A DNA stretch of 32,000 bases from Cuniculiplasma divulgatum (GTDB taxonomy: Archaea; Thermoplasmatota; Thermoplasmata; Thermoplasmatales; Thermoplasmataceae): contig NZ_LT671858.1 in NCBI RefSeq assembly GCF_900083515.1, forward strand, positions 1,710,001 to 1,742,000, given 5' to 3'. The translations under genes and the position numbers were made by a program. This document shows, in pieces, positions 1,435-31,481 of this stretch; position 1 is the stretch's first letter, and each line of letters starts with the position of its first letter. The notes below the pieces were generated by a model that made no database searches, had not been told where the DNA came from, and saw only the letters and a list, made by a program, of their open reading frames with translations.

Positions 1435-1506
1435 GGGCCGGTAGATCAGGGGTAGATCGCTTGCTTCGCAAGCAAGAGGCCTCGGGTTCAAATCCCGACC
1501 GGTCCA
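1435..1506 (+). tRNA. tRNA-Ala, anticodon CGC
   Basis: The cloverleaf folds by hand. Acceptor GGGCCGG/CCGGTCC with a G3:U70 pair (the alanine identity element), D arm GATC-AGGGGTA-GATC, anticodon arm CTTGC-TTCGCAA-GCAAG (anticodon CGC at 1467-1469), variable loop AGGCC, T arm TCGGG-TTCAAAT-CCCGA, discriminator A. No CCA is encoded. Confidence 0.95.
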
Positions 1507-1507
1507 T
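1488..1507 (+). repeat. attL: direct repeat formed by the 3' end of tRNA-Ala
   Basis: tcaaatcccgaccggtccat here matches tcaaatcccgaccagtccat at 20701-20720 (19/20). Confidence 0.85.
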
Positions 1508-1527
1508 TTAATCTATTAATCGAATAC

Positions 1528-1555: not shown

Positions 1556-2848
1556 ATGACCATGCAGCCGAAGTACCAGGAACTGCTTCTTGATGATGAT
1601 GTGAGAAGGTGGTACGAGAACCTCAGGGCAAAGTCGGTTCTTACTGCGACAGTTGCATTGAGGAATCTGGGCCACTATTGTGAGCTTACCCACACAAATC
1701 CAAAGGGCATATTGAATAAAGCAAGCGCCAGCGAGAAGGATTTCAGGTACGAATTCACGGATTTTGTCAGGAGGATGGAAAAGGAAGGCAAGGCAGGATC
1801 ATACATAGCGAGATTCAAGAAGGTCATTATCTCTTGGCTGAAGTTTAACGGTATTGGTTTGCAGTTAACCGTTAACATATCCGGGGAAAACGAAACACCG
1901 ACAATCGTTAACGAGAGAGTTCCAAGCAAGGAAGAACTGGGTAGAATACTCAGGAAAGCCACATCAAGAGGGAGAGTTGCCATAGCCATTATAGCGTTTT
2001 CAGGCCTCAGACCGGAATCCCTGGGAGATTACGAAGGCACAGACGGATTGAAACTTGGCGACATCAAAGAATTACGTATATCTGATGAAATACAGTTCGA
2101 AAAGACTCCTGCAATGATTGTGGTGAAGAACAAGCTGAGCAAGGCAAGGCATCAGTACTTCAGCTTCATCGGAGAAGAAGGCGCAACCTACATAAAGGAA
2201 TATCTTGAGGAGAGAAGGAAGCTGGGCGAGGAGCTGACCTACGAGTCTCCATTGTTGCAGTTCGATGTCAGAGGAGTTAAGAAGAACGCATTCCTGAGAA
2301 CCACTCTTGTTACCAGGGATATAAGGGAAGCAATAGAAAACTCAGGCCTGAAGATGCGTCCATATGTCCTGAGAGCGTATTTCTCAACGGCATTGGATAT
2401 TGCAGAGGCAAAGGGCCTGATATCCCATCCATGGAGACAGTTCATCATGGGCCACAAGGGAGACATAGAAGCCCGATACTCTACGAACAAACGGCTACTA
2501 CCTCCTGATGTAATTGAGGAGATGAGGGAGGCATACAGGAAGAGCACGAAATTCCTTGAGACCAGATACAGCGAGCTTGAGGAGGACAAGGCCCGGTTGT
2601 ATCTGCAGCAGCAACTCCTATCAGCAGTTGGCTACAAACCGGAGGAGATTGACAAAATGGATCTCACCGACATAAGCAGCGACGACTTCCAGAAGCTACT
2701 CAGGGACAAGGTCGCGGGAGCCATGGCCAGCAACGGCTCGAAACAGAGGCTTGTTCCAATGAATGAGATAGAGAAGCTCCTGAGCGAAGGATACGAGTTC
2801 CAGGCAGTTCTGCCCAACGGAAAGGCTATAATGAAAATGCCGTTTTAG
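1556..2848 (+). CDS. int: Tyrosine recombinase / integrase of the integrated element
   Basis: 430-aa ORF directly downstream of the tRNA target. The catalytic-type motifs appear in order: FSGLRPESL (Arg I), LRAYFSTAL, FIMGHKGDIEARY (His...Tyr nucleophile region). Confidence 0.85.
   Translation: MTMQPKYQELLLDDDVRRWYENLRAKSVLTATVALRNLGHYCELTHTNPKGILNKASASEKDFRYEFTDFVRRMEKEGKAGSYIARFKKVIISWLKFNGIGLQLTVNISGENETPTIVNERVPSKEELGRILRKATSRGRVAIAIIAFSGLRPESLGDYEGTDGLKLGDIKELRISDEIQFEKTPAMIVVKNKLSKARHQYFSFIGEEGATYIKEYLEERRKLGEELTYESPLLQFDVRGVKKNAFLRTTLVTRDIREAIENSGLKMRPYVLRAYFSTALDIAEAKGLISHPWRQFIMGHKGDIEARYSTNKRLLPPDVIEEMREAYRKSTKFLETRYSELEEDKARLYLQQQLLSAVGYKPEEIDKMDLTDISSDDFQKLLRDKVAGAMASNGSKQRLVPMNEIEKLLSEGYEFQAVLPNGKAIMKMPF
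2811..2848 (+). repeat. Copy 1 of a 38-bp direct repeat (the authentic 3' end of int)
   Basis: tgcccaacggaaaggctataatgaaaatgccgttttag. A 31-bp stretch is identical to 4804-4834 and the repeat is 36/38 overall. Confidence 0.9.
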
Positions 2849-3013: not shown

Positions 3014-3022
3014 TTTTTATAA
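3014..3022 (+). promoter_or_regulatory. TATA box candidate for the cysteine-rich protein cassette
   Basis: TTTTTATAA is centred 25 nt upstream of the ATG at 3043. Confidence 0.45.
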
Positions 3023-3042: not shown

Positions 3043-3684
3043 ATGAGCTGCAGTAATTGTTTTGACGCAAAGGGGAGGAAGATTACCAAAATAAGCGTGC
3101 CACACACAGAGACCTATAAGGTGGGAGCAACAAACGTAACCGAAGGAGTTACGGTTGTGCAATTTAAAGAGGGCCCTGGAGCGATCCTTAACTGGAAGTA
3201 CATTATCGAAGGAGAAACTTCATCAAATGCCTCGATTACATACGTAATACAGCATAGCGGAAAAACAATAACCAATAAATTCAGGACAAAGTACATTGAC
3301 ACAATCAACGGTAAGAAAATTGTTCATGTTGAGGGAAGCGGACTGAACTCGAACGGCAGGGTTACGACTGCTAACCAAGATGTCGCTCTCTCGAACATAA
3401 AATCGGACCCAAATACCATCGAGTGTCTTATCTGCCATGCTCTTGGAACGGTGCTCTGTACACTTCTCGCAGATGGAGTTTCTGAGGACTTGGCTTGCGA
3501 GGAGGCATCGGGTATTGTATGCCTGGAATTCATAGAAGACCCTATTGTTTATGTCGTCTGTTTTGGAGTCGTGGCATCTATTTGCGATGTTGTCCTTCAA
3601 ACGGTAGTAGATATTGGCGTTCACGTAGCGTGTGAACTTGGTGCAGATTATATATGCGAGAAAGCAATCGGTTGTTCTCTATGA
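3043..3684 (+). CDS. Cysteine-rich protein with a beta-rich N-terminal half and a ~90-aa hydrophobic C-terminal domain carrying 10 Cys (halocin C8-like framework). Candidate archaeocin precursor.
   Basis: 213-aa ORF. The C-terminus is DPNTIECLICHALGTVLCTLLADG...VCLEF...VCFGVVASICD...VACELGADYICEKAIGCSL. It is clearly paralogous to 29180-29800. I saw no N-terminal Sec or Tat signal. Confidence 0.75.
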   Translation: MSCSNCFDAKGRKITKISVPHTETYKVGATNVTEGVTVVQFKEGPGAILNWKYIIEGETSSNASITYVIQHSGKTITNKFRTKYIDTINGKKIVHVEGSGLNSNGRVTTANQDVALSNIKSDPNTIECLICHALGTVLCTLLADGVSEDLACEEASGIVCLEFIEDPIVYVVCFGVVASICDVVLQTVVDIGVHVACELGADYICEKAIGCSL

Positions 3685-3727
3685 TGTATTTAAATAGTTA
3701 CACCCATATATATAGCGAGGTAGTTCT

Positions 3728-4255
3728 ATGAGATACAGACTTGCGTTAATCGTTGTTGGGATCACAATAATATCTGTTGATACTGTAGTCTCTCTCAGAT
3801 ATCCAAAAATTCTAATTTACAGTTATTGGGGGTCCTTCCTTGGATTCTTCGTCCCCTTTGGGATTGGCCTGTCAGTTCTCCTGTATGGCATATTTAAGGC
3901 ACGTGATTATGGAATAAATCCGATTATTGGGACAATCGGATCAGGAGGCTTTACAAGAGTGATGAGACAAAATAGGATTCAGGGCACAAGAATGTGGAAA
4001 TCCGACCACGACATTCTTTCTGATCTGCCTGGGGCGGTGAAATCACCGGATGGTAAGACTGTAGAATACACTAACATGTTCATAAGAAAACCATATGGGA
4101 CAACGAAATATTCTAGAATGCTTAACGAAGCGGCGAATAAATACCTTAGCGGTGAATTAGATGAGGAGGGCTTTTACAACTACGTCGGAAAACATGGAGC
4201 GAAAGAGGAGCAAATGCTCGAATTCATTAAGAAATTCAAAAATGACTATAAATGA
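3728..4255 (+). CDS. Membrane-anchored protein of unknown function (two N-terminal TM helices plus a soluble domain)
   Basis: 175-aa ORF, 44 nt after the upstream gene on the same strand. The N-terminus is hydrophobic (LALIVVGITIISV..., FLGFFVPFGIGLSVLLYGI). Cassette 2 has no counterpart. Confidence 0.6.
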   Translation: MRYRLALIVVGITIISVDTVVSLRYPKILIYSYWGSFLGFFVPFGIGLSVLLYGIFKARDYGINPIIGTIGSGGFTRVMRQNRIQGTRMWKSDHDILSDLPGAVKSPDGKTVEYTNMFIRKPYGTTKYSRMLNEAANKYLSGELDEEGFYNYVGKHGAKEEQMLEFIKKFKNDYK

Positions 4256-4264
4256 GATGATAAA

Positions 4265-4519
4265 ATGGTTAAATTTCATCCGATAAACAAAGTAATGACC
4301 GTGGGTACCTTTCTGTTCTTCGCTTCTCTTATTGTTTTAGCTATAGGGACAATTTTTCATTCTAACGGTCCAATATTGGCAGATACTTTTCTGTACGGAG
4401 GATTAGCTTTCCTAATTTCTATCATTCTCCTGACAATAGGTGTACTCACCGGTGCACGAAGTGGTAAACTCAGACAGAGGACAGACGAGATATTTGGCAA
4501 GAAACAGAAAAGAGAATAA
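4265..4519 (+). CDS. Small two-TM membrane protein with a basic C-terminal tail. Candidate immunity or export partner.
   Basis: 84 aa. Paralogous to 29821-30072: MVKFHP vs VVKYHKP at the N-terminus, two TM segments, then SGKLRQRTDEIFGKKQKRE vs SGSRQERMRELFENSKRK. Confidence 0.65.
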   Translation: MVKFHPINKVMTVGTFLFFASLIVLAIGTIFHSNGPILADTFLYGGLAFLISIILLTIGVLTGARSGKLRQRTDEIFGKKQKRE

Positions 4520-4556
4520 GGTGTTAAAGTGAGCATTCAAGGAGCTGTAAATCCAA

Positions 4557-4781
4557 TTGCTGAGTAAATACCCACATCATTTGCTCTTTGTCATTTTAGT
4601 CTCTATCGTGACACTTATAGTCAATGTCCTTGCATTCTACACAAGGAATGTCTCTAACTATCTCTATCTTTTCGACATAGCTTATGTAATTGGAAACAGT
4701 GCCCATTTTGTTGCATTGTCCATCTCATCAAATGGCATTAGTGTTGAGGATGAAAGAGACCAAGATAGCCTTGGTTTCTGA
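4557..4781 (+). CDS. Small two-TM membrane protein (TTG start)
   Basis: 74 aa with GGAG 13 nt upstream. The N-terminus MLSKYPHH matches MVSKHVHRY of 30076-30285, and the two proteins share position in the cassette and TM architecture. Confidence 0.55.
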   Translation: MLSKYPHHLLFVILVSIVTLIVNVLAFYTRNVSNYLYLFDIAYVIGNSAHFVALSISSNGISVEDERDQDSLGF

Positions 4782-4803: not shown

Positions 4804-4841
4804 TGCCCAACGGAAAGGCTATAATGAAAATGCCTTTCTAG
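4804..4841 (+). repeat. Copy 2 of the 38-bp direct repeat (relic 3' end of an integrase gene)
   Basis: tgcccaacggaaaggctataatgaaaatgcctttctag still encodes PNGKAIMKMPF-stop. The two differences from copy 1 are synonymous (ccg/cct, ttt/ttc). Confidence 0.9.
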
Positions 4842-4845
4842 AATT

Positions 4846-5475
4846 GTGCTTCTTTCTACGCCCATAGATTACCGCCTTCCCGAAGATAAGAATGCGGAGA
4901 TGGTGCTGAGGACCATTCAGGACAGAGAAAGAAGTTTTGAGAGGACTTACACCACAGACTTATACATGATGTTTTCAGACAAAATGGAGGATGAGATTAC
5001 TTCCACCAACGAGCTCAAGCACGAGTGGATCGATAAAGCCATTAAAAGGCTCAAAAAGAGAAACTTCATCGACAGAATTCAGGATGAAAAAGATAGGCGA
5101 AGGGTAGAGCTCAGAACCAGGTCCGAGGAAATATACACCCATATGATCAAAAGGGACCCCATGCTCTTCTGGAAGCTGATAGAGAAGGGTCACTTTTATT
5201 TCATAGTCAGGTTCAGGAATTCCGGTGGCAATGTGATATGCCCGGAATGCGGCCGCCGCAGGCCTCTTATTGCCGATATAACCGGCAACAGGGCCGCAAG
5301 ATACGTGGTGAATGACGATCTGCACATAGATGTAACAATCAGGCACCTTGCCATCAGATTCGACTGCGGATGCGGATATTCCTACTCGGATGAGGTTGAT
5401 ATGTTCGATCCTCTGACCGTGGAGGACTTTTCCAGACTTCATGATGCCGCAGACAACCGTCGTAATCCAGTGTAA
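4846..5475 (+). CDS. Putative DNA-binding protein: winged-helix-like middle region plus a C-terminal Cys cluster (zinc-ribbon-like). The start codon is uncertain.
   Basis: 209-aa ORF with a GTG start in the track; internal ATGs are possible alternatives. Motifs are KAIKRLKKRNFIDRIQDEKDRRRVEL and CPECG...CGCG. Confidence 0.55.
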   Translation: MLLSTPIDYRLPEDKNAEMVLRTIQDRERSFERTYTTDLYMMFSDKMEDEITSTNELKHEWIDKAIKRLKKRNFIDRIQDEKDRRRVELRTRSEEIYTHMIKRDPMLFWKLIEKGHFYFIVRFRNSGGNVICPECGRRRPLIADITGNRAARYVVNDDLHIDVTIRHLAIRFDCGCGYSYSDEVDMFDPLTVEDFSRLHDAADNRRNPV

Positions 5476-6046: not shown

Positions 6047-6454
6047 ATGGAAGCCGAAGATCTGTTCACTGAGGTGTTTCCCGCCATGGCGCTGATCATG
6101 ATTATTGCGGGTTTCCTTGACCCCACATTCTGGCCAATGCTCCTTCAGTGGCTGGTATCGGGAAAGGCATTCCTGATGGTTCTTGCAGCTTCAGCATTCC
6201 TGATAGTTATTGTTGGAGGCGTTGTTCTGATCTACTATGCAATCGTTGCTCTCATCTTCATAGCGATATTTTCTATTTTTGTCCTGGCTCCCCTGTATTT
6301 TCTTTATCTGGTTCTGGGGCTCACATACTCTGTGATTCTGGGGGCTGTTGTCGGTGCCGTTATCCTGCTGTATCTCGTGGAAACCAGGACGGTGAGGATC
6401 GAGCAACACACCATAACACTCTCCGTGCACAGGAAGTACATTGTCAAAAGGTAG
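6047..6454 (+). CDS. Polytopic membrane protein (about 4 TM)
   Basis: 135-aa ORF that is strongly hydrophobic throughout and sits immediately upstream of the ATPase gene. Confidence 0.65.
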   Translation: MEAEDLFTEVFPAMALIMIIAGFLDPTFWPMLLQWLVSGKAFLMVLAASAFLIVIVGGVVLIYYAIVALIFIAIFSIFVLAPLYFLYLVLGLTYSVILGAVVGAVILLYLVETRTVRIEQHTITLSVHRKYIVKR

Positions 6455-6459
6455 ACAGA

Positions 6460-8235
6460 ATGGATAAATATTTGCGATGCGAAGACAGAAATATGCGGGA
6501 AATGGGCTTTTCCGATCTCATCAAGGCACGAAAGGTCCTATCCAGACCAATAATAGAATTGCCCATAAGGAACGAGGAAAGACTATTCTATCATCCAGAG
6601 AAAAGGCTCAAAAGGTTCACAGGTAGAACTGCAATTGCTTACGCAATAATCCCTGACGCCGAGAGAGGGAAATTCAGGAGAGAAGAATGCTCTCCAAAGG
6701 CGTCTTCCCTCGGGGACTATATCATCCACAAAGGCAACAGGAATGTGTCAATAACGGGAGTATCAGGACAGGGCAAGAGCTATCTGACCACTCACCTAAT
6801 ATCGATATTCAGCGACAAGGAGATAATCATTTTCTCATTCAAGCCAAACGACCACGAATTGCACCTTGGAATTCCGGTCATAGATGCAAAGGAGTGTCTA
6901 CCCAACCCATTCAGCGATATGAACGCCTTTTCTGAGGCATACATGACCGCATTCTTTGGTGACAAGACCTCATCCGGAATACAGCTTCAGCAGACTCCAG
7001 GATTCCTGCAGGAGCTTGCTTCCGATAGCAACAGCTGGAAGGATTTCATGAAGAGGCTGAAAGATAGGAAGAGATCTGCATCCAAGAACCAGGTGGAGGC
7101 ACTGAACGCCATAGAACAGAACGTGAAGAGCCTGGTTATCGAGGATATGGGAAGCGTAGCTCTTGATGATGGAAGTGTTGTTTTCGACTTCTCATCCTTA
7201 CCGACAAAGCAGGCTCAGAACTTCTATGCCGAGCTTGTGCTGAGGCAGATATACAGGGAAATGGAAGAGCGCAAGAGGAATGATGTTCTTATCCTGATCG
7301 ATGAAGCCCATCGCCTGACCAAGTCATATCATACAATCCTTGATGTCATGTCCCGCGAGATAAGAGACAAGGGGATGCTCTGGATCATCACACAGAACCT
7401 TATCGACATACTGCCTGAGATGAGGGCAAACTTCGGCACGAAATTTACATTCAGGCTGGGAGACTCCGATCTCAACCTTCTGTCATATAACCCGCTCATG
7501 AGATACGCCGTCGAGGTGCTGCAGCCAAGACAGTTCATTGACATAGAATTTCCTGAAGGGTCATCATTCTCGCCTGTGTTCACGTACGTTTCCAATGGTT
7601 CGGAGCACAGAGATATACAGAAGGTCGTAGCGGTGGTATCAGAGCCAGGAAGGGAAGAGGGAGCCGGAGGGAGAGGAGAGGCTATCGACTACAGGAGGGA
7701 GGCCCTGGAGATACTCAGCGACAGGATGTCCTATGCGACGGAGATGGGAAAGATGATCGCCGAGAAGTACGGCGTCACGAAGGACCAGGCAAAGCTCAAG
7801 CTGAAATCCGCTCTTGAAGAACTTAAGAACAGCAACGAGGTCGGCAGGGTAAAATACATCAGGGACGGAAAGCCAATAGTGATGTACTATTCTAGGAGCC
7901 CGAACCTCTCCAACCTACATACGGGGATGCAGAGTCAGGTCGTTGGGATACTGAACGATTTGGGCGTCAACATAAACAGGATATCCGCCACAGGTGAAAG
8001 AAGCGCATTTGACATTGAAACCGACTTCTTCATGGTAGAAATCGAGACTGGCCTGAAACACAGCATGGAAGACCTGAAAGATAGGATTCGCAACACAAAT
8101 CTGAGAGTAATAATTGTGGTTCCAAACAAAGAGCTAATGGAGAAATATACAGGATTAGGAGAGAACGTCGCTGTTGCTACCATAGACTCCATCAAGTTCC
8201 TTCTTGAGGAGCCTCAAAAGAATAGAGGCTCATAA
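6460..8235 (+). CDS. HerA/FtsK-superfamily P-loop ATPase with a C-terminal wHTH-like region and a possible PD-(D/E)xK-like module
   Basis: Walker A is ITGVSGQGKSYLT and Walker B is VLILIDEAHRL. I moved the start from 6148 (track) to the in-frame ATG at 6460 (MDKYLRCEDRN...) because 6148-6454 overlaps the membrane gene and reads as low-complexity Cys/Ser/Arg text. Confidence 0.75.
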   Translation: MDKYLRCEDRNMREMGFSDLIKARKVLSRPIIELPIRNEERLFYHPEKRLKRFTGRTAIAYAIIPDAERGKFRREECSPKASSLGDYIIHKGNRNVSITGVSGQGKSYLTTHLISIFSDKEIIIFSFKPNDHELHLGIPVIDAKECLPNPFSDMNAFSEAYMTAFFGDKTSSGIQLQQTPGFLQELASDSNSWKDFMKRLKDRKRSASKNQVEALNAIEQNVKSLVIEDMGSVALDDGSVVFDFSSLPTKQAQNFYAELVLRQIYREMEERKRNDVLILIDEAHRLTKSYHTILDVMSREIRDKGMLWIITQNLIDILPEMRANFGTKFTFRLGDSDLNLLSYNPLMRYAVEVLQPRQFIDIEFPEGSSFSPVFTYVSNGSEHRDIQKVVAVVSEPGREEGAGGRGEAIDYRREALEILSDRMSYATEMGKMIAEKYGVTKDQAKLKLKSALEELKNSNEVGRVKYIRDGKPIVMYYSRSPNLSNLHTGMQSQVVGILNDLGVNINRISATGERSAFDIETDFFMVEIETGLKHSMEDLKDRIRNTNLRVIIVVPNKELMEKYTGLGENVAVATIDSIKFLLEEPQKNRGS

Positions 8236-12301: not shown

Positions 12302-14842
12302 ATGGTCAGAAATGAAGATGAATTTTACCAAGACTTAAAGAATATTTTTATTGGTGCCAAAGTTGAGGGAAATTCTGGCTTTGTAAATTTAATGAAGATA
12401 AAGTCGACATATTTTGAAAAGATTCTCAAATTTTTGAAATCTGATATTGAAAAGGAAACGGCTGAATTCCCAGAATTCAAAGAAGAGTTATTTACTAAGC
12501 TCCATACATTCTTCAGAACTTACTTTTCAGAATCAGGAAGTATATATTTTAGTTATACGCCGTTAAAATCAAAAGTATATGAAAAAATATATACCAACAA
12601 TCAGGACGTTATGCTTTTTTGGAAAACCAACATGCTTTACTATGTTAAGACTGACAATCTATACAAGACTTTATCAATTAGTTGCGAAATAGAAGGTTCA
12701 GAATATACAATCAAATTTGATGCAACTCAGATAGAGGGGAAGAGGTCTAACGAGAAAAGGGTACTAATCTTTGAGCTTGAGAGCATAAACGATAGAACCA
12801 TAACGTTCAAACCGCAATATTCAGAACATGGAAAGGAAACAAAGGTATCTGAGATTTTAAAAGAGTTCTATAGAAACAACATAAATATAACTGAAGATCA
12901 ACTAGATGGATTGTTCAAGACGTTTAAGAGACAGACAGAAGTCGACTATTTTATCAATAAAGATGCAAAGGCATTTTTGAGAGAGCAATTCGATCTATGG
13001 TTAAAGAATTACATTTTTGATGATGAGAGCGATTATTCGGAAAAGAGACTTAAACAGTTAAAAACCTTAAAATATATTGCTTACAAAGTAATTGATTTTG
13101 TTGCCCAATTTGAGGATGAACTGGTAAAAATATGGAATAAGCCTAAATTCATTCTAAACTCGAACTATGTCGTAACCTTAGACCGGATTGTGCAACAGGA
13201 GGGTGGTTACCAACTCCTTCGTGAAATAATAAGTCATGCTAATTTTTCTGAACAGGTTAAAGAATGGGTAGATTTAGGAATAGTCAAAGATGATTTTAAA
13301 GAGAATTCGATTATAGTTGCGGAAGGTTCTTCAATCAGTGTAAACAGCAAGTACGAAACCCTCCCCATCGATACCAAATATTTTAAAGATATGGAGCTAA
13401 AGATAATACAGCTATTTTCTAATTTAGACGCGGAGCTTGATGGGTACTTAATACACGGCGAAAATTATCAGGTTCTTAGGACAATTTTTCCCAAATGGAG
13501 GGAAAAAGTCGAATTGATTTATTTAGACCCCCCATTTAATACAGGTAACGATTTTATCTTCCTAGATAACTATCAAGTATCTTCTTGGTTGACAATGATC
13601 AAAAATAGACTTGACATTTTATATCCTTTCCTCAATCCACAAGGCAATCTATATCTACACCTTGACCACATATCAGAGCATTATGCGAGAATCTTGTTGG
13701 ACAATACTTTCGGAGCTGATAACTTCAGAGCGAAGATAACATGGAATACGGGCGAAAATATATCTGGATTTAAGTCACAGGCATTAAACTGGATCCGCCA
13801 AGCTGACTTTATACACTACTATGTAAAAGGACCATCACCAGTTTTTCATAAAGCATATGAACTGCTAAATCGAGAAGATGCCAACATAGGTTGGTTGGAT
13901 GTTATTGGCGATAATAAAAAGTCACTTTACGTAGAAAAATGGAACAACGGAAGCTTTGTTCGTGATAGTGTTAAGTATAGAGTTAAAGCCAAAGGTACGG
14001 TCTGGAACGACATCTATTCTTTCCAGTATAGCGAGCCCAGGATCACAGAGAGTTTATCATTTGCCAGTAACCAGAAACCGGAGAATTTGCTCAGACGGAT
14101 TGTTCAAACTTCATCCAACCCACAAAATTTAGTGTTAGATTGCTTTCTTGGGAGTGGTACTACAACCAGTGTAGCTCAGAAGCTTTCAAGAAAGTGGATA
14201 GGAATAGAAATGGGAGACTACTTCAACGAAACCTACTTAGACGTGGTAAAAATAAGTAAAACAAAGGCTGAGGAGGATTCTGAAAACAATGAAGAGCTAA
14301 TAGAACGAAATAATCTATCTATCATAAAAGTGATTTCTGAAACAAAGAATGAAATGACCGTTATCATGAGAAAAATTGGGGCACTTGGAAGAATGAAAAT
14401 CGTATTGCATGGAGACAAAGAGTTCCGAGCTATCCATAGCCCTGTTGTCAGGCGGCCACATCTAAGCAAAGATGTAAATTGGAATGGGGGAGGATTTTTC
14501 AAGTACTATGAGGTGGAACAGTATGAGCAAGCACTAAAAAACACCCATTACAGTGATTCTGAGCCCTTTTTTAAGTTGAATACTGATGATGTTTACAATC
14601 AATATGTTTTCCTAAAAGATAAAAAAATGATTGACAGAATGGAAGTAGATTACAAGAATAATAAAATAAAGATCAAGTACGATGAGATTTATCCTAATAT
14701 CGACCTCGCGGAGACTCTGTCTAATATTAAGGGAAAGTTCATCAAGCGAATAGAAAAAGATGCAGTTATCTTTGAGGACGATGAAAAAGTATACTTCTCA
14801 GAAATAGATTTCCAAACAATTAAACCCCTAATTTGGTGGTAG
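12302..14842 (+). CDS. mod: Type III restriction-modification methyltransferase (Mod, beta-class N6A/N4C) with a long N-terminal extension
   Basis: Motif IV (ELIYLDPPFNTG) precedes motif I (LVLDCFLGSGTTTSVAQKLSRKWIGIEMG), with NQKPENLL between them. 846 aa. The stop lies 1 nt before the res start. Confidence 0.85.
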   Translation: MVRNEDEFYQDLKNIFIGAKVEGNSGFVNLMKIKSTYFEKILKFLKSDIEKETAEFPEFKEELFTKLHTFFRTYFSESGSIYFSYTPLKSKVYEKIYTNNQDVMLFWKTNMLYYVKTDNLYKTLSISCEIEGSEYTIKFDATQIEGKRSNEKRVLIFELESINDRTITFKPQYSEHGKETKVSEILKEFYRNNINITEDQLDGLFKTFKRQTEVDYFINKDAKAFLREQFDLWLKNYIFDDESDYSEKRLKQLKTLKYIAYKVIDFVAQFEDELVKIWNKPKFILNSNYVVTLDRIVQQEGGYQLLREIISHANFSEQVKEWVDLGIVKDDFKENSIIVAEGSSISVNSKYETLPIDTKYFKDMELKIIQLFSNLDAELDGYLIHGENYQVLRTIFPKWREKVELIYLDPPFNTGNDFIFLDNYQVSSWLTMIKNRLDILYPFLNPQGNLYLHLDHISEHYARILLDNTFGADNFRAKITWNTGENISGFKSQALNWIRQADFIHYYVKGPSPVFHKAYELLNREDANIGWLDVIGDNKKSLYVEKWNNGSFVRDSVKYRVKAKGTVWNDIYSFQYSEPRITESLSFASNQKPENLLRRIVQTSSNPQNLVLDCFLGSGTTTSVAQKLSRKWIGIEMGDYFNETYLDVVKISKTKAEEDSENNEELIERNNLSIIKVISETKNEMTVIMRKIGALGRMKIVLHGDKEFRAIHSPVVRRPHLSKDVNWNGGGFFKYYEVEQYEQALKNTHYSDSEPFFKLNTDDVYNQYVFLKDKKMIDRMEVDYKNNKIKIKYDEIYPNIDLAETLSNIKGKFIKRIEKDAVIFEDDEKVYFSEIDFQTIKPLIWW

Positions 14843-14843
14843 A

Positions 14844-23534: not shown

Positions 23535-24057
23535 ATACAACATGGAGAAGAGACTTGGATCACTGTTTACCTATTACTCATATCCGATCCAGATAAGAAG
23601 GTCAATACACTCTTCAAACATAATAGAGAGGATGAATAGGGAGATCCGTAGAAGGATCAAGGTCATTGACTCACTGCCAACAGAGAACAGTGCAATGAAA
23701 ATTGTATACCTGAGAGCAGCAGAATTGAATGAGAGGTGGTCACACATTGTGATTAGAGACATTGTCAAAAAATAGTTGAAAAAATACTGATAGACTTCAG
23801 TTGAGAATTTGTCACTTCTCGACAGAGCCCCTAAAGAATGTAGTTTATACAATTTGTCAATTGTTAGCTCTGCGTATATTACCCGTGAAAATCAACTAAA
23901 AGTTGACAATGTCTGATTAGAGGATATTATAAATGCAAGGACGGGATCAGGGAAATGTTCCAGGAGAGGTATCCTTAAGTTTACACAAGATTCTGGACGG
24001 TATGGACAGACCTCTCAGAATGGAGAGATTCTTCTTTGTGTAACCTGAGAAATCCAT

Positions 24058-24491
24058 TCACAGGCGGTACGATTGATCTCTAATCCTGTTCTTTATTGCT
24101 GTCCTCTGCCTTACGAGGAAATTACGATTCCTGCAAATGTTCCTCGATTCGCCTATTTCTCCAGACGGAAGATAGGATTCAGGCGTGTATTCCTTCGTGT
24201 ATAGATCCAGCAATATATGTGCATCGTTTTTGCCCGTCTTGTTCATAGATTCTGCGATCAGTCTCACCTTCAGTGGATTGGCCACTTTGATCGTGTGGCG
24301 GGTAAGAATGAGACTAACTCGTCTATAGTGGGGGAGGCCTCCACTATAATCGTAGCTTCACTTATACTCTCAAGGAATCTGCTGAACTCCTCTCTGCTGG
24401 TAAGTACACACCCCTCCTTCACTATCTCACCATCCTTGTCGATTATTCCGTACGTTTTGTATTTCCCTACATCCATAGCTATGCTATACAT
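24058..24491 (-). pseudogene. IS110-family transposase, N-terminal fragment, frameshifted and truncated by the IS256 element
   Basis: MYSIAMDVGKYKTYGIIDKDGEIV... (24270-24491) and ANPLKVRLIAESMNKTGKNDAHILLDLY...RNRNFLVRQRTAIKNRI (24058-24285) lie in different frames. The coding sequence stops near the IS256 right end at 24009. Confidence 0.7.
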
Positions 24492-24580
24492 TTCTTATCA
24501 CCTTACCATGAGCTGCAGCATTATCTGACTTGCTGCAACTTCAACTAAGGGAAAAATCGAGCATCTCAGTCTAAAAACCA

Positions 24581-25398
24581 TTAACCGAAGACAATTTCCA
24601 GCTTGGGTATCCAATCTTTGATGACCCCGTATCGAGCGCATCTCATCCCGCCGAAATTCTCGTTGATAGATCCGCCCACAGTGGCTACGCTCACGTTGGA
24701 GGGATCAGGAGGAAAGAAGAAACCATGCTTCCTGCATCGGAAGTTCCACGAAAATTAAAAGGAGTTACCTACAAAAATGGCTTGTGTTACTATTTCCCTC
24801 GTTTATGATTCAATTTTTTTTTTCGTGGGTACATGCGTGCCGGTGTGCTGGATTGCCTCTGGTATGAACACTATATGAGATACATGGAACGCCATAAATA
24901 TTTCGTATGTTCGTGAGCATGTATATGAAGCGTTCAAAATATAACTTATTAAGTTGAATACAGGGAATTATGATAGTTTTCTATGGAAAATCTGATGGAA
25001 CTTCCGCTGCATGCTGCATCGGCTTCGAATAGAGTGGTGCCCGCTTCCGCGACCATGTAACCGTTCTCAATCGAGACCTCGATCCTGTTCATGCGTTTCA
25101 TGTCCAGCACTATCACTCCTTCCACCGGGACCACGGCACCGGTGGTGCTCAAGCCTCCACCCCTGACGACCACCGGAATCTTATGTCTTGCCGCGATGCC
25201 CATCGCTACGGTTACCTGGCCTGCGCTTTGTACCTGAAGCACTATCTCTGGCAGATGCTCGTAGCGATCTATGCTCCCTTTGCTGTAGAGGGACAATCTT
25301 GTTCTGTCCAGAAACACGTTCTCGCTCCCAAGCAGTTTTTCAAATGCAACTATGACCTTTTTCGAAATCATGTATTCTCCATCCCAAAGAGTTGGCAT
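24581..25398 (-). pseudogene. FAD-binding oxidase (GlcD-like, FAD_binding_4-type N-terminus), split by a MITE and 3'-truncated
   Basis: The N-terminal fragment is ...PEIVLQVQSAGQVTVAMGIAARHKIPVVVRGGGLSTTGAVVP...AEAGTTLFEADAAC. Removing 24738-25012 restores the frame into RKHGFFFPPDPSNVSVATVGGSINENFGGMRCARYGVIKDW..., which then stops prematurely at 24581-24583. The start codon is uncertain (25371 or 25398). Confidence 0.7.
24738..25006. mobile_element. 269-bp MITE, a non-autonomous derivative of the IS1634-family element
   Basis: It has the same 11-bp termini as the full IS (CGGAAGTTCCA at 24738-24748, TGGAACTTCCG at 24996-25006). A 6-bp target duplication CTGCAT lies at 24732-24737 and 25007-25012. 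An internal T-run (gattcaattttttttttcgtgg) resembles the subterminal region of the IS right end. Confidence 0.8.
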
Positions 25399-25675
25399 CT
25401 TATAGCTTTTATTTGGGATATAACCATTCGATGATTGCCGGAAAATTTCTCTATGTTTTCCCAAGAGTGCCATGGTTTCCACGCTTAGCGATGGAGAACT
25501 TTGTTAATTATGGGCCTGGTTTCCAGTTGGATCTGCATTCAGGGGGATGTAAAAGGGTGCGAATATTGTTTCCCCCGGTTGCAGGAAGAGAGCAATCAGC
25601 ATAGGACTCACCTGATCCGATCGCACGTCTTTACATGTACAACGTGTACAAGTGGCCATTCGTAACCCCATTGCC

Positions 25676-26152
25676 TTAAATGGAAGCTTTCCCTCGCGGG
25701 AGGATAGCCGCTGAATAGACTAGGAAAAAGTATGAGATTACTGCCACGATGAATCCAATTGACATAGCAAAGGAGAAGACGTTATCCTGAAAGCCGGAAA
25801 AAAGGAACAGAAGGCCGCTTATGCCTGCCAAGAGGATTGAGAGTGATGCAACTGCGCTTATGGCAGCCGACCTGAAATCTGCCCTCATGATAGCCAATAC
25901 AAATATCATCAGGGAAAGGAGCCCGATGAGGACGCCATTCATCATATGAATCATTAGCTCGGGCACCGATATCATAACAGTCATCATAGCATAGGGTTGA
26001 AACGCTACCCGAGCGGTAGGGAACGGTGCGAAGAGGTTCATCCATATCCCGAACACAAACTGCACGGCGAGAAGCAACAGTTCTATCGCTATGACCACTA
26101 TAAAGAAACTCATGCCCTGCTCGTTTACAGAATTTGCATGCGTCCCTGACAT
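25676..26152 (-). CDS. Polytopic membrane protein of unknown function
   Basis: 158-aa ORF with 4-5 hydrophobic segments. The overlapping alternative-frame ORF 25782-26165 is Arg/Cys-rich and implausible. Confidence 0.55.
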   Translation of the reverse strand: MSGTHANSVNEQGMSFFIVVIAIELLLLAVQFVFGIWMNLFAPFPTARVAFQPYAMMTVMISVPELMIHMMNGVLIGLLSLMIFVLAIMRADFRSAAISAVASLSILLAGISGLLFLFSGFQDNVFSFAMSIGFIVAVISYFFLVYSAAILPRGKASI

Positions 26153-26196
26153 CGGTTCTAGCCATGCTTCAAATATTAATAAGGATTCCCATTAAC

Positions 26197-27691
26197 CGTA
26201 ACTGGTCAGTCTGATGTGCCCGATCCTTTCATCCCGGTTTAGCACTCCTTTTTATTACGGATGACGTATCTGTAATGAAGCTTTTTCCCCTCAGCTTTGA
26301 TGTGTAATATACGGAAAAGATCTTCGTATAGATATCAGCGCCTCTATCTGATCTGGATCCGCCTGATATTTTCCTGTATATGACCGAAGGTCTCAGTGCC
26401 CTCTCTGCCCTGTTGTTTGTCGCTTCAACATCAGGATCAATGACGAAACGGAACAACCACTCCTTCTTCCGTTTCAGAAGATTCTTAACAAACTTTCTCG
26501 ATCTCGCGTTTTCATAATCTGTATCCAGGAGGAAGACAAGTCTGTGGTAAAGATTCTCAACATCATCCATGGTGCCATGGCCATGGAATCCCTTTGCCTC
26601 ATCATATACTGATTGAATGGATCTCTTTATTCCTGATCCCTCCTCACCGTAGAACTGTTCCAGTTCCTTTGCATCACAGATTATGTGAGACCAGCAGTAC
26701 TGCTGATTGTTGCCTGTCTCTTTGGCAAGTGTTTCGAATGCGGAATGCCTGTCATGAACATCGGTTCCATTATGTTCACCGAGAACCTCCATGGGAACAT
26801 CATGGCCGTTTCCCCTGGATATGTGGAATATGGCCTCTGTCTCTGTGAGAAATGTCCAGAGGTTGTAATTATCGCCGTCAATCCTCCATGAAGTGGAATC
26901 CATGTGGCGGTAGGATGATTCCCTGATACTGTCCAGCAACCTGGTATATTCATCTCCAAGTGCATTGGAGAGTTGTGACAGGATATTCTGTATCTCCCCT
27001 TCTGATACATGGATGCCGAATACCTCTTTCATCATCCTCGAAACGTTCTCAATGCTTATTCTCATGCCTATGCGGAAGTAGGCAACGGTGATCATTGCCC
27101 TCAGTGATAATGTTGCATTGGGAAATGCATCGGGTATTTCTGGTTCATATACCCTGTGGCATTTTGTGCAGTATAATCGATCCATACTGTACTCTATGAT
27201 ATCAGGTTTTATGACCGGGATATCCTCTATGATCCTTGACCTTGATCCCTTTCTCCTCAGGGGGGAATGGCACTCGGGGCATTCCTTCAGATCCAGGTGG
27301 ATCCTTATGCTTTCTGTTGGCTTTTTTCTGATCCTGAAGTGCCCGGGGTGACCTTCCTGTGATCCCGGTTCTCTCTTCCCAGGGTTTTCATGATCCATGA
27401 TGTCAGGTTTTACATCCTGTGGTACTGCAATGTCATAGGTCTTTCCATTCTTCACACCTACGGTTGCAGGATGTCTCTTTTTGTATTCCTCAAGTTCCCT
27501 GTTTTTGTCCTCCAGACGTTTTCTCAATTGATCGAAGGCCCTGAGAATCTTATCAATCATGTCCTGGTCTCCGGGTGTTTCGGCAAGTAATTTAATCATT
27601 CTAATAATATAATGCATTACTTATATATAGACCTTTCGGTTCATAACACTGCGTCAGAATAAAAGTGTGGCACAAGGGACTGAACTGTTAC
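26197..27691 (-). mobile_element. IS66-family insertion sequence (single-ORF type, 1495 bp)
   Basis: Terminal inverted repeats GTAACTGGTCAGTCTGATGTGCC and GTAACAGTTCAGTCCCTTGTGCC (18/23). An 8-bp target duplication CATTAACC lies at 26189-26196 and 27692-27699. Confidence 0.85.
26229..27617 (-). CDS. IS66-family transposase
   Basis: 462-aa intact ORF with an N-terminal coiled coil, a zinc-finger CPECHSPL...CTKCH, a DDE region (HMDSTSWRIDG..., VHDRHSAF, CWSHIICD) and the C-terminal ATNNRAERALRP motif. Confidence 0.85.
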   Translation of the reverse strand: MHYIIRMIKLLAETPGDQDMIDKILRAFDQLRKRLEDKNRELEEYKKRHPATVGVKNGKTYDIAVPQDVKPDIMDHENPGKREPGSQEGHPGHFRIRKKPTESIRIHLDLKECPECHSPLRRKGSRSRIIEDIPVIKPDIIEYSMDRLYCTKCHRVYEPEIPDAFPNATLSLRAMITVAYFRIGMRISIENVSRMMKEVFGIHVSEGEIQNILSQLSNALGDEYTRLLDSIRESSYRHMDSTSWRIDGDNYNLWTFLTETEAIFHISRGNGHDVPMEVLGEHNGTDVHDRHSAFETLAKETGNNQQYCWSHIICDAKELEQFYGEEGSGIKRSIQSVYDEAKGFHGHGTMDDVENLYHRLVFLLDTDYENARSRKFVKNLLKRKKEWLFRFVIDPDVEATNNRAERALRPSVIYRKISGGSRSDRGADIYTKIFSVYYTSKLRGKSFITDTSSVIKRSAKPG

Positions 27692-27699
27692 CATTAACC

Positions 27700-29131
27700 C
27701 ACACTCTCCGCATGTCCAACCGGATCAGACATGCATAATTCATCGGGAATGTAGTTTATTACCATACAAAAGGTTCTCATTATTTATTTATCCTGGCAGA
27801 CGACTTAAAATTAGGGGGATTAATATTGTATTATGAAGACACAAAATAACGCCCCGTTGTGTAATGTAAAGGATACAAAAGAATTTTTCTCCTCAGCCTT
27901 GAAGAACATGTTCGCACCTGTCATTAAGGAACATTCCATCTATACTGAAGGCGATGTATCAGGAACACTGAGGAATACCATTGCAGATCATCTGTACATT
28001 GAAACATATGTGAGAAATTACGGAGATACAGGAACACCATCAGGTGATACCATGTTCAGGCTGTTGAAGGGAATTGCCTCTGAATCAGGTTCACACAGGA
28101 GAAAAGGATCTGACAGGAATAAGAAGAGGAAAACAGTGAGAACTGGAATACAAACGATAGAGTCACTGCTGGATCTCATCGTTAAGAAGGCAATCTCCAT
28201 GGGTGCCTTCTCAACAGCCGTGAATGTTGCAATAGACGAACATGACCATCCATATTATGGTGCTGACAGCAGATATCTCATGGGTGTGGGATCAAAGAAG
28301 TTCAGGGGTACAGACAGGGCATACAGATTTGCAACACTGGAATCTGTGAAGAGGGGTGAGAGGTCTGTACTTTCAGTCATGCGACATGATCAGCCTGACG
28401 GTATTGACAGTTCCAGGGAGGTAGAGACACCTATTGAACATGCGGTGGAACCTGGAATAAAGATCAACATCATTCTCATGGATCGTGGCTATCTGGATGC
28501 AGGTGTGATGAATAATGTGGATACCATGGGGATGAAATACATTGTACCTGCAAGGGACAGTCCAAGGGTGTTGAGATTAAAGAAAAAGGATACGAATTAC
28601 TCTGAAAGGAGAGAGGTGGCTAAGGCCAGCTTCGTACATGTGAAATACCATAAGGACGGTAAACTTCATGATTTCTCATTTTATACAAACATTGAGGTCA
28701 CTGAAGACCTGTTGAGAATCTTGCAGAGATATACCGGGAAAGGTGGAGTATTGAGAATGGTTATGGAGAGAAGATGGTACTTGAGGAGAAGAGACATTCC
28801 CCTGACATTGGCGTGAGATATTTCATATTCTATTTTTCAGTGCTGATCTATAATTTATGGACTCATAAATCTCATGAGAAGTCTTTCAGGACTGGAATGG
28901 ATCATATTCATGGATTTCGTAATAGACATGAAAATGGGGAGATGGGGATCAATAACCGGTGATTTTGGATAAAGTTGAAATCAAATTCAGGTCCTGGAAG
29001 GATAGAGAAGGAAGATCAACAGCCATGGCTATGATCATGAATCACATGAAGAGATGCTGTCATGAAAAGTGAAATAAGATTGGTGAAACTAGAAAATTAA
29101 GTGTCAGTTATCAACACACGCGGAGAGTGTG
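27700..29131 (+). mobile_element. ISH3/IS4-like insertion sequence (about 1.43 kb) with a degraded transposase
   Basis: Terminal inverted repeats are CACACTCTCCGCATGT at the left end (27700-) and CACACTCTCCGCGTGT as the reverse complement of the right end (ending at 29131). I found no clear target duplication. Confidence 0.7.
27833..28962 (+). pseudogene. DDE transposase (ISH3/IS4-like), frameshifted
   Basis: Frame 1 contains VAIDEHDHPYYG and IILMDRGYLD. The third catalytic block, EIYRERWSIENGY...VRYFIFYFSVLIYNLW, lies in the frame of ORF 28774-28962. A frameshift therefore falls at roughly 28700-28740. Confidence 0.7.
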
Positions 29132-29147
29132 AATGAATAGGAATATG

Positions 29148-29154
29148 TATATAT
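29148..29154 (+). promoter_or_regulatory. TATA box candidate for cassette 2
   Basis: TATATAT is centred about 29 nt upstream of the ATG at 29180. Confidence 0.35.
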
Positions 29155-29179
29155 GGTGTGGTGATTTGTTTTTATTATT

Positions 29180-29800
29180 ATGGCAAAGAGAATAAATAGT
29201 ATAAAGGTTGTCCATTTTGATGAAACTACTGAAAATGGTGTCAGAACACAGCAAGCATCTGTACTTATTGAAATTGAAGGCGAAAGACCTAAATTAATTC
29301 AGGGAACGCAAGTATTGAAAGGAGATGTAAACGGTAAACACACTATCAGCTATACTATATTCAATGGAAGAAATATTGGGAAAGCAACCTACTCCATAAA
29401 TACAATGGAAAAGAATGAAAATGATTCAAAACTAAAAATTGTGGGCATTAGTGAGGGAAAAGTTTGTTGCGGGAATAGTAAACCGATAGACACAACATTA
29501 GTGGTACCTAATAAAACATACTCAAGCAATGATCCATCTATTCAATGCGACATTTGTCAGGAATTAGTTAAGGAAATATGCGAGGAATTGGCAGACGGCA
29601 TACCTTCGGATGAGATATGTGCGGACGTATGTGTTGCGGGAGCAGGAGATATTTGCTTATTATTTGTTGAAACCTTAATCGGTTACCTTATCTGTCTATC
29701 AATTTGCGCCTCTCTCTGTGCACTGGCAATAGAGGAAATAACAGATTACGGTTGTAGCGTGGGAGCCGAGTACATATGCCAAAAGGTAGGTGTATGCTAG
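29180..29800 (+). CDS. Cysteine-rich protein, paralogue of 3043-3684 (halocin C8-like C-terminal domain, 12 Cys)
   Basis: 206 aa. The C-terminus DPSIQCDICQELVKEICEELADG...ICLLFVE...GYLICLSICASLCALAIEEITDYGCSVGAEYICQKVGVC aligns with cassette 1 through DP..I.C.IC, LADG, and GA.YIC.K..GC. Confidence 0.75.
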   Translation: MAKRINSIKVVHFDETTENGVRTQQASVLIEIEGERPKLIQGTQVLKGDVNGKHTISYTIFNGRNIGKATYSINTMEKNENDSKLKIVGISEGKVCCGNSKPIDTTLVVPNKTYSSNDPSIQCDICQELVKEICEELADGIPSDEICADVCVAGAGDICLLFVETLIGYLICLSICASLCALAIEEITDYGCSVGAEYICQKVGVC

Positions 29801-29820
29801 ATGGTTTACATTAACGTGGG

Positions 29821-30072
29821 ATGATTATAGTGGTAAAATATCATAAACCAGTTAGTTATTTGAGTCTTATCGCAGGTTTCCTCTTCATAGCGTTTTTATT
29901 AATCGGAGCAATTGCGATAATAGTCATACATTCACATGTTCTGGCCTTTATTGATCTGGGTTTGTTACCGGTAATCGTAATTGTGGGAACAGTAGGATAT
30001 ATAAAAAGCCTAAAAAGCGGTTCAAGACAAGAGAGAATGAGAGAACTCTTTGAAAATTCAAAGAGGAAGTGA
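29821..30072 (+). CDS. Small two-TM membrane protein with a basic tail, paralogue of 4265-4519
   Basis: 83 aa with the same position, length and topology as its paralogue, and a conserved SG..RQ.R..E.F tail. Confidence 0.65.
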   Translation: MIIVVKYHKPVSYLSLIAGFLFIAFLLIGAIAIIVIHSHVLAFIDLGLLPVIVIVGTVGYIKSLKSGSRQERMRELFENSKRK

Positions 30073-30075
30073 AAA

Positions 30076-30285
30076 ATGGTTTCAAAACACGTTCACAGGT
30101 ATATCATAGGAGGGGTGGCCATATTTTTCATAGTTTATGTGCTAGTAGCAAATGCCTATCTTAGTTTCAGGGACTTTGCATTGTATGCAGCGTTGCCTTC
30201 ATTAGTGATAATGATTGCTCTTGCCTTTTTTTACCGCTATCTTGAAAACAGTATCAAATTTGAGCGGAGGACAGGAACTCAATAA
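30076..30285 (+). CDS. Small two-TM membrane protein, paralogue of 4557-4781
   Basis: 69 aa starting 3 nt after the upstream stop. The N-terminus is MVSKHVHRY vs MLSKYPHH. Confidence 0.6.
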   Translation: MVSKHVHRYIIGGVAIFFIVYVLVANAYLSFRDFALYAALPSLVIMIALAFFYRYLENSIKFERRTGTQ

Positions 30286-30417
30286 CCCGAAAGAAAAGTA
30301 TGAGGGGTTGGGGAAAGAGATGGTATTATAGTCTTTATCATAACATTGTACCCTTATTATACATAACGTAATAATTACTGCCGCATATATTTAAATATTC
30401 AAAATTGTTATATAATT

Positions 30418-30918
30418 ATGAAACGGCTTGAAATAAACAACGCAAAGGAGATGTCTGTTGCTATACGGAATGAGATATTCCGTTCTGAGGAATCAAGGTA
30501 TGATCACCGACTGCACGGCCTTCTGCTCGTCAGTGAGGGAATGAGCTGCTATGAAGCTGGAAATATATTCGGGGAAGATCCCAGAACCGTAGAGAGATGG
30601 GTTAAGAGATTCAACGAGAAAGGTTTCAACGCCCTCAGGGAAGGAGTGAGATCCGGACGGCATTCAAGGCTTACGCCTCAGCAAATGGATCAGATAGGCA
30701 GCGATCTGAGAAAGAATCCGGGAGAATTCGGATATGATCAGAATCTCTGGGATGGGAAACTTCTCATGCACCACATATGGGAGAAGTTTCATGTGAAGAT
30801 TGGTGTAAGGACATGCCAGCTCATATTTCACAGGCTTGAATTCAGGAGGAGAAAACCAAGAGGAATCATAGCCAAAGGCGATCCTGATGAACAGTACGCT
30901 TTTAAAAAAACTCTCTGA
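30418..30918 (+). CDS. IS630-family transposase, N-terminal HTH part (ORF A)
   Basis: The sequence EAGNIFGEDPRTVERWVKRFNEKGFNALREG...LWDGKLLMHHIWEKFHVKIGVRTCQLIFHRLEF shows the paired HTH architecture. It ends just after an A7 run. Confidence 0.75.
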   Translation: MKRLEINNAKEMSVAIRNEIFRSEESRYDHRLHGLLLVSEGMSCYEAGNIFGEDPRTVERWVKRFNEKGFNALREGVRSGRHSRLTPQQMDQIGSDLRKNPGEFGYDQNLWDGKLLMHHIWEKFHVKIGVRTCQLIFHRLEFRRRKPRGIIAKGDPDEQYAFKKTL

Positions 30919-31453: not shown

Positions 31454-31481
31454 TTGTGTGTATGCGGTAATACTTATTTCG

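Follow-up and report, generated by a model that had tools for sequence, protein, structure and literature searches.

A divergent halocin C8-like protein with a predicted saposin-like domain, encoded beside membrane-protein genes on an integrative element of Cuniculiplasma divulgatum

Introduction

Halocin C8 of Natrinema sp. AS7092 is the C-terminal effector domain of a larger precursor, ProC8 (Sun et al. 2005, via bioRxiv 10.64898/2026.07.27.741052). ProC8 carries a twin-arginine translocation (Tat) signal and an N-terminal HalI immunity domain (PF22862, Hac8_like_N), and ATP-binding cassette (ABC) transporter genes lie downstream (bioRxiv 10.64898/2026.07.27.741052). Here, we analyse a 213-amino-acid (aa) halocin C8-like (HalC8-like) protein from an acidophile of the Thermoplasmatales, Cuniculiplasma divulgatum S5. 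Its gene (CSP5_1776; SIM83303.1; UniProt A0A1N5WDS6) occupies positions 3043–3684 on the plus strand of a 32,000-nt stretch of contig NZ_LT671858.1, referred to below as the window. Like ProC8, the protein holds its putative effector domain at the C-terminus of a larger precursor, and this domain resembles halocin C8 in being hydrophobic, about 76–90 aa in size and built on a 10-Cys framework that opens with CxxC. In contrast to ProC8, the protein has no Tat signal and its N-terminal half is predicted to be all-beta; its acidophilic host lacks a cell wall, the gene is carried on an integrative element and small membrane-protein genes lie downstream instead. An earlier annotation made from the DNA alone (the first-pass annotation) had likened the N-terminal half to HalI; this analogy was not supported, as Pfam returned no match to PF22862 at E <= 1 in the protein or in its paralog within the window. 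The halR, halU and halT1-3 ABC genes are likewise absent from the locus, where no ABC family was matched in Pfam or NCBIfam, and the neighbours are an integrase, three membrane proteins and a winged helix-turn-helix (wHTH) protein.

A 2019 study by Makarova and co-workers is said to have extended the halocin C8 family to diverse archaea. A 2026 preprint, which counts 82 archaeal and 26 bacterial homologues, credits Makarova et al. 2019 with the earlier detection of the bacterial C8 homologues (bioRxiv 10.64898/2026.07.27.741052). The family link of the present protein is already in the databases and is not new. Table S2 of a 2020 proteome paper lists both CSP5_1776 and the paralog, CSP5_1806, with the arCOG best-hit label ‘Halocin C8 family bacteriocin’ (PMC7285479), the NCBI name of the paralog is ‘halocin C8-like domain-containing protein’, and UniProt applies ‘Saposin B-type domain-containing protein’ to one family member. 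The proposal of an undescribed module in the first-pass annotation was thus overtaken by existing labels, that of arCOG being attached to this exact protein. Both proteins were detected in S5 cells, at ~0.01% (CSP5_1776) and ~0.11% (CSP5_1806) of protein amount (PMC7285479); none of CSP5_1775, CSP5_1777–1779 and CSP5_1807–1808 is among the proteome-table entries listed. The saposin-like fold predicted below and the unusual wiring of the cassette appear to be undescribed, and no connection between halocins and saposins was found in the literature searched. The family assignment, being on record already, lessens the surprise; what makes this variant worth testing is that it lacks a signal, has membrane-protein partners, is predicted to fold like the saposins and is carried by a mobile element.

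Genes for the saposin-fold circular and leaderless bacteriocins of Gram-positive bacteria sit beside small membrane-protein immunity genes. These bacteriocins (AS-48, enterocin 7A/7B, lacticin Q and aureocin A53) are compact, membrane-acting helical bundles, some of them made without a signal or leader (PMC7559574). Unlike the protein studied here, they are cationic, disulfide-free and 40–70 aa in length and do not belong to a precursor of two domains, and no sequence relationship to them was detected. At the level of the element, a further likeness is offered by colicin plasmids and by the toxin of a chronic Sulfolobus spindle-shaped virus (PMC8628083), in that an element-borne toxin would favour carriers and producers are protected by functions of the element; the proteins are unrelated, the Thermoplasmatales have an integrative, plasmid-like element as the carrier, and killing and protection are putative here.

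Results

Relationship to the halocin C8 family

The open reading frame (ORF) at 3043–3684 is followed by three genes on the same strand, as the first-pass annotation had it, and divides into two domains. The C-terminal domain (C-domain; aa 122–213, 3406–3684, plus strand), a putative toxin, comprises the final 92 residues from DPNTIEC onwards and contains exactly 10 Cys (C128, 131, 139, 152, 160, 173, 181, 197, 205 and 211), in agreement with the hydrophobic, 10-Cys domain of ~90 aa delineated earlier from DPNTIE. Its pattern is CxxC-x7-C at the start, in place of the CxxC-x8-C previously given, and C-x5-C (ICEKAIGC) at the end. With a Cys background of 0.54% in the 22 other proteins of the window, at least 10 Cys in 92 residues would arise by chance with P ~1e-10. 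The C-domain is both hydrophobic (grand average of hydropathy +1.06) and very acidic (15 D/E versus 1 K/R).

Family membership is indicated by a match of the NCBIfam profile TIGR04449 to residues 128–211, which spans profile positions 1–69 of 69 (E = 1.3e-3). Its score of 19.6 bits is below the curated cutoff of 24 bits, which counts against the assignment. The paralog (CSP5_1806; 206 aa, 29180–29800, plus strand), which has the same two-domain architecture with 12 Cys in its C-domain, is above that cutoff at 52.9 bits (E = 5.7e-14), and the two proteins align in BLASTP over their full length with every Cys in register (E = 3e-19, 26% identity). An exhaustive search of 1.84 billion representatives with a joint profile of both clades recovered 24 relatives. 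These include P0060, P0061, P0062 and P0066, all above the TIGR04449 cutoff and several of them short forms. P0062 is a 282-aa precursor of haloarchaeal type with a Tat (twin-arginine) signal (joint profile E = 7.4e-6; TIGR04449 37.5 bits), and the profile of the target clade alone reaches it in hhalign with E = 1.1e-4 and a probability of 56%. The 10-Cys framework is invariant or nearly so in 14–23 sequences, down to about 22–23% identity and including the Tat-signal precursor, and most relatives have one additional Cys pair. Thus, both the profile-level similarity to halocin C8 and the conserved cysteines on which the first-pass annotation had staked its proposal are present. With TIGR04449 matched from end to end and a strong link to the above-cutoff paralog, the 213-aa protein belongs, on the profile evidence, to the halocin C8 domain family as a divergent member, and the homology is real.

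The N-terminal domain (N-domain; aa 1–121, 3043–3405, plus strand) is basic in composition and is predicted by AlphaFold2 (AF2), at low confidence, to be all-beta with eight strands, consistent with the beta-rich N-terminal half already noted. Its profile matches are to Big_9, cadherin-like and MucBP repeat proteins. Two further Cys form a CxxC at the extreme N-terminus (MSCSNC; residues 3–6, window 3049–3060) whose conservation is limited to the target clade. No Sec or Tat signal is present in the 213-aa protein, as had been remarked before, since its N-terminus has neither a twin-arginine motif nor a hydrophobic stretch and the ORF allows no upstream extension. The full-length AF2 model was set aside (mean predicted local distance difference test, pLDDT, 62.8), and Foldseek found nothing below E 0.1 for it against the PDB.

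In most of the acidophiles of both clades, with P0045 and P0056 as exceptions, an Asp-Pro (window 3403–3411) stands immediately ahead of the first C-domain Cys, and the five most distant relatives all lack it; a second EDP occurs in the target clade at the loop between helices 2 and 3. The Asp-Pro ahead of the first Cys could be a site of processing by acid, or it may simply cap a helix. Upstream of the gene, a TATA-like box, TTTTTATAA (3014–3022, plus strand), is recognised from the sequence with its centre 25 nt ahead of the ATG, a spacing that fits a leaderless transcript and bears out the promoter layout read earlier.

Predicted saposin-like fold of the C-domain

A profile built from 16 C-domains was searched against the sequences of the PDB and retrieved almost only saposin-like proteins, with saposin A on top (E = 6.7e-5 and 1.8e-4), followed by surfactant protein B, amoebapore A and saposin C. 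In the hidden Markov model alignment to saposin A (E = 6.7e-5), all six saposin cysteines (CxxC ... C ... C ... Cx5C) are matched, by C128, C131, C160, C173, C205 and C211. In agreement with this, the AF2 model of the C-domain (pLDDT 90, predicted template modelling score 0.79) consists of five helices, and its best PDB matches in Foldseek are to saposin A (2dob; template modelling (TM) scores 0.72/0.80, root-mean-square deviation 2.5 Å, probability 1.00), with further matches to saposin C (2gtg; 0.64/0.73) and NK-lysin (1nkl; 0.50/0.56). We therefore predict, from profile and model together, that the C-domain adopts a saposin-like five-helix bundle. Five disulfides would lock this bundle, in a pairing that we infer.

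Three results weigh against the prediction and limit what is claimed. The Foldseek E-values are 0.5 or worse, which is attributed to the small size of the domain; Pfam SapB_1/SapB_2 match none of the 16 family members at E <= 1; and hhalign against one eukaryotic saposin-repeat protein gave a probability of only 16%. For these reasons, the shared fold is put forward as a prediction, and common descent with the saposins is unproven. The likeness to saposin A, saposin C, NK-lysin, amoebapore A and surfactant protein B thus lies in the closed four-to-five-helix bundle, predicted here, and in the six canonical cysteines that align, and the acidity of the domain recalls the saposins of the low-pH lysosome. 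The difference lies in the additional disulfide pairs, two in the target and three in the paralog clade. The predicted fold points to a concrete mechanism that can be tested, direct membrane permeabilization, and would structurally link an archaeal toxin family to the pore-forming saposin-like proteins of eukaryotes.

Membrane-protein genes downstream of HalC8-like genes

The 213-aa gene is trailed on the plus strand by p175, p84 and p74. p175 (175 aa, 3728–4255) has two transmembrane helices by hydropathy and a basic soluble tail of ~115 aa; it is a candidate accessory or immunity protein, and its homologues fall into 34 clusters of 68–95% identity, all within the same taxa. p84 (84 aa, 4265–4519), with two transmembrane helices and a basic C-terminal tail, is the best immunity candidate. 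p74 (74 aa, 4557–4781, TTG start; homologues of 58–88% identity) carries two hydrophobic segments, of which one is strong and the other weak. Of the ‘three small two-transmembrane proteins’ of the first-pass annotation, then, the three membrane-protein genes and the two-helix topology of p84 stand, whereas p175 is larger by its soluble tail and p74 falls short of two clear segments. The homologue of p74 lies upstream of the 213-aa gene in the related elements of loci L007 and L028, so that p74 is not a fixed part of the operon. No useful family match was found for p175, p84 or p74 in Pfam, PHROGs or NCBIfam; DUF2614 and holin-type matches to p84 are weak, confined to the transmembrane segments, and were rejected.

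The paralog is followed in the same way by two-transmembrane proteins of 83 aa (29821–30072, plus strand) and 69 aa (30076–30285, plus strand). The 83-aa protein is homologous to p84 (33% identity, E = 2e-8); the 69-aa protein has a homologue in locus L024 and shows no significant similarity to p74. Homologues of p84 also follow HalC8-like genes or pseudogenes in loci L024 and L030, the L030 pseudogene being disrupted by an insertion sequence (IS). In all, a HalC8-like gene is directly trailed by a membrane-protein gene in six diverged lineages. Downstream of the target lie p175 (two transmembrane helices and soluble tail) and p84 (two transmembrane helices), of the window paralog the 83-aa and 69-aa proteins, of P0045 (L024) four small membrane proteins, of P0051 (L032) an unrelated 192-aa protein with two transmembrane helices and a soluble tail, of P0049 (L033) a multi-pass DUF6159 protein, and of P0054 (L034) a 69-aa two-transmembrane protein. 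p175 and the 192-aa protein after P0051 show no similarity to each other, and no membrane-protein neighbour of this kind was seen for the Tat-type P0062. In the distant lineage of L033 (698–1600), the DUF6159 gene overlaps the stop of the HalC8-like gene; DUF6159 proteins might be immunity or export partners.

Selection and decay of the C-domain

Compared with the divergent alleles of L007 and L028, the C-domain has 4 nonsynonymous and 40–42 synonymous differences, corresponding to a nonsynonymous distance (dN) of 0.019 and a synonymous distance (dS) of >1.2; the N-domain has a dN of 0.17 against the same alleles. Among the alleles compared, this shows strong purifying selection on the C-domain, which at 95–98% identity is the most conserved piece of the element (integrase 87%, ATPase 75%, p84 45–67%). 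At least five independent decayed alleles have lost the Cys domain, namely products of 119, 121 and 136 aa, one frameshifted copy and one with a 55-aa internal deletion; one of these losses came about by a clean deletion of 320 bp, which is found in five assemblies. p175 and p84 are intact beside the 119-aa and the frameshifted copies, the two neighbourhoods seen. Loss of a toxin with retention of its immunity would give such a pattern. In L028, p175 seemed to be cut short next to an intact toxin gene, but the gap proved to be a run of N in the scaffold, and the case was dropped as evidence.

The integrative element

The cassette lies on a mobile element, as the first-pass annotation held. A tRNA-Ala(CGC) gene (1435–1506, plus strand; ARAGORN, Rfam) is the integration target and overlaps the 21-nt attL core (1488–1508, plus strand), which was located by repeat search and sequence. 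A copy of this tRNA-Ala 3′ end with one mismatch forms the 21-nt attR (20701–20721, plus strand; repeat search), and the two repeats bound an element of 19.2 kb. A tyrosine recombinase of 430 aa (1556–2848, plus strand), with weak XerA/XerD matches in NCBIfam, serves as the integrase, and its gene and the 213-aa gene are adjacent in all integrated copies. Further products of the element are an AAA_10/AAA_22-like ATPase, ParA, a resolvase, Orc1/Cdc6 and a type III restriction-modification pair of low GC content. Neither virion genes nor a structural module, which would have spoken for a virus, were recognisable in the element with Pfam or PHROGs, beyond weak ATPase-type matches to packaging families, and IMG/VR, INPHARED, PLSDB and BFVD held no viral or plasmid relatives.

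Locus comparisons were made with close homologues of the window protein. The same element is found in Thermoplasma volcanium GSS1, in two Acidiplasma assemblies and in three other Thermoplasmatales assemblies (loci L011–L018), always in the gene order integrase, 213, 175, 84. The 213-aa protein is identical in all of these assemblies and 96–98% identical to that of the window; because the cargo protein is shared so closely across genera, a recent transfer of the element between genera is suggested. The element is common to Thermoplasma, Acidiplasma, Ferroplasma-type, I-plasma and Cuniculiplasma genomes, almost unchanged.

Discussion

Proposed function and alternatives

The Thermoplasmatales hosts are wall-less acidophiles. 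We favour the proposal, to which we would give about an even chance, that the C-domain acts as a membrane toxin on wall-less neighbours free of the element, and that the membrane proteins encoded behind it, with p84 in the lead, guard the carrier and may release the toxin. The C-domain would be the effector that, once outside the cell, binds and permeabilizes the membranes of Thermoplasmatales lacking the element. The downstream membrane proteins would shield carriers and/or let the toxin out, with p84 as the leading candidate and p175 as an accessory. As cargo at the integrase end of the 19-kb tRNA-Ala integrative, plasmid-like element, the cassette would impose a penalty on element-free cells that helps the element to persist and spread. 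Export, cleavage, killing and immunity are all steps that we infer. The Thermoplasmatales variant suggests that Tat, HalI or ABC partners are not needed for the domain to function. If the cassette kills non-carriers, it would offer a clear instance of an archaeocin by means of which a mobile element spreads in acid mine communities.

Several observations weigh against this proposal. The locus has no Sec/Tat signal, ABC transporter or protease, so that export of a five-disulfide domain is unexplained, and activity is on record for haloarchaeal family members only. By the positive-inside rule, the basic tails of p84 and p175 suggest that the bulk of these proteins faces the cytoplasm. The near-invariant toxin domain stands opposite putative immunity genes that are the fastest-evolving genes of the element, a pattern unlike the usual co-diversification of toxin and immunity. 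Comparison of the window with the common allele gives a dS of 0.2–0.3 in the 213-aa gene and of 1.4–2.4 in p175, with a recombination breakpoint at the stop codon of the former and divergence starting right there; the downstream alleles have therefore been swapped by recombination. Finally, loss of the toxin domain would equally be expected from plain decay of a cargo gene.

A broader scheme, doubtful when taken as a whole, would make halocin C8-type archaeocins prokaryotic saposin-fold membrane toxins, with a signal-less, acid-adapted branch in the Thermoplasmatales. The 15 acidic residues would be protonated outside the cell at pH about 1, an acid cut at Asp-Pro may free the toxin from the basic N-domain without a protease, the small membrane proteins would both release it and protect against it, and the killer trait would drive the cross-genus element through acidophile communities.

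The missing signal peptide and exporter would find a simple explanation if the protein acted inside its own host, as an addiction module in which the saposin-like domain inserts in the host membrane, the small membrane proteins neutralise it, and loss of the element kills without any need for secretion. The position of the cassette at the integrase end of the element, the detection of the protein in cell-pellet proteomes and the predicted cytoplasmic orientation of the basic tails of its partners all suit such a module. However, five conserved disulfide-type Cys pairs suit an oxidising, extracellular setting and the founding member of the family is a secreted toxin, whereas deletions of the toxin domain that keep the partners suit external killing equally well; we regard an addiction module as unlikely. 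A saposin-like fold in wall-less acidophiles would also accommodate a factor that is not a weapon and instead remodels or fuses membranes to aid movement of the element between cells, in the manner of the lipid perturbation and the fusogenicity at acid pH of saposins. In line with this, an AAA_10/AAA_22-like ATPase and polytopic membrane proteins are encoded by the element, in which no transfer apparatus is recognisable, its near-identical copies in several genera imply frequent transfer, and the extreme conservation of the domain suits a generic lipid target. This is nonetheless distinctly unlikely in view of the homology to a bacteriocin family, the second, paralogous cassette outside the element in an IS-rich region, the lack of any known link of saposin-like proteins to DNA transfer in prokaryotes, and the variable small partner proteins, which resemble immunity genes more.

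Two other roles are very improbable. The UniProt name ‘Predicted metal-binding protein’ would place the protein in the cell as a metal binder, in keeping with its 12 Cys, including two CxxC motifs, and with the default cytoplasmic location of a signal-less protein. We rejected this reading as the Cys positions match the saposin disulfide pattern within a helical bundle; moreover, the domain is strongly hydrophobic, TIGR04449 is matched and no metal-binding family is. A structural protein of the virion or vesicles of an integrated, membrane-enveloped virus would fit an element that encodes several small membrane proteins, an NTPase and many ORFs without known function, but it has just as little to commend it: capsid, spike and packaging families are absent beyond the weak ATPase-type matches, IMG/VR, INPHARED and BFVD hold no relatives, and ParA, the resolvase and Orc1/Cdc6 are such as are found on a plasmid.

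Further features of the element and its surroundings

A 38-nt direct repeat brackets the cassette from the integrase stop to p74. The first copy (2811–2848, plus strand) forms the 3′ end of the integrase gene, and the second (4804–4841, plus strand; 95% identical) delimits the cassette on its right; both were located by repeat search. The second copy occurs in this window only, the other loci having a single copy. After it, the backbone type switches to one with a 209-aa wHTH gene (4846–5475) that is otherwise seen only in the divergent L007 and L028. Judged from the sequence, the repeat pair looks like a recombination scar of a cassette or integrase swap.

At 12302–17819, the type III-like pair comprises an 846-aa N6/N4 methylase and a 991-aa ResIII helicase/endonuclease with a GC content of 35–37%, versus 42–50% in the element; by its sequence features, the pair is a separately acquired defence insert. 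Just past attR, the region 20800–31800 is dense in IS, with at least six transposase-like ORFs, and contains the paralog cassette (29180–30285). In loci L019–L023, the paralog cassette directly follows a shortened 213-175-84 cassette within the element. A Metallosphaera sp. (Sulfolobales) assembly has a homologue of p175 and a decayed paralog, which reflects either cross-phylum transfer or a binning error. A 135-aa polytopic membrane protein (6047–6454; highly divergent, with 32–39% identity between elements) precedes the 591-aa AAA_10/AAA_22-like ATPase (6460–8235), and the two may form a minimal DNA-transfer or secretion pair. The frame of the ATPase can be extended upstream to 6148, where it overlaps the gene of the 135-aa membrane protein.

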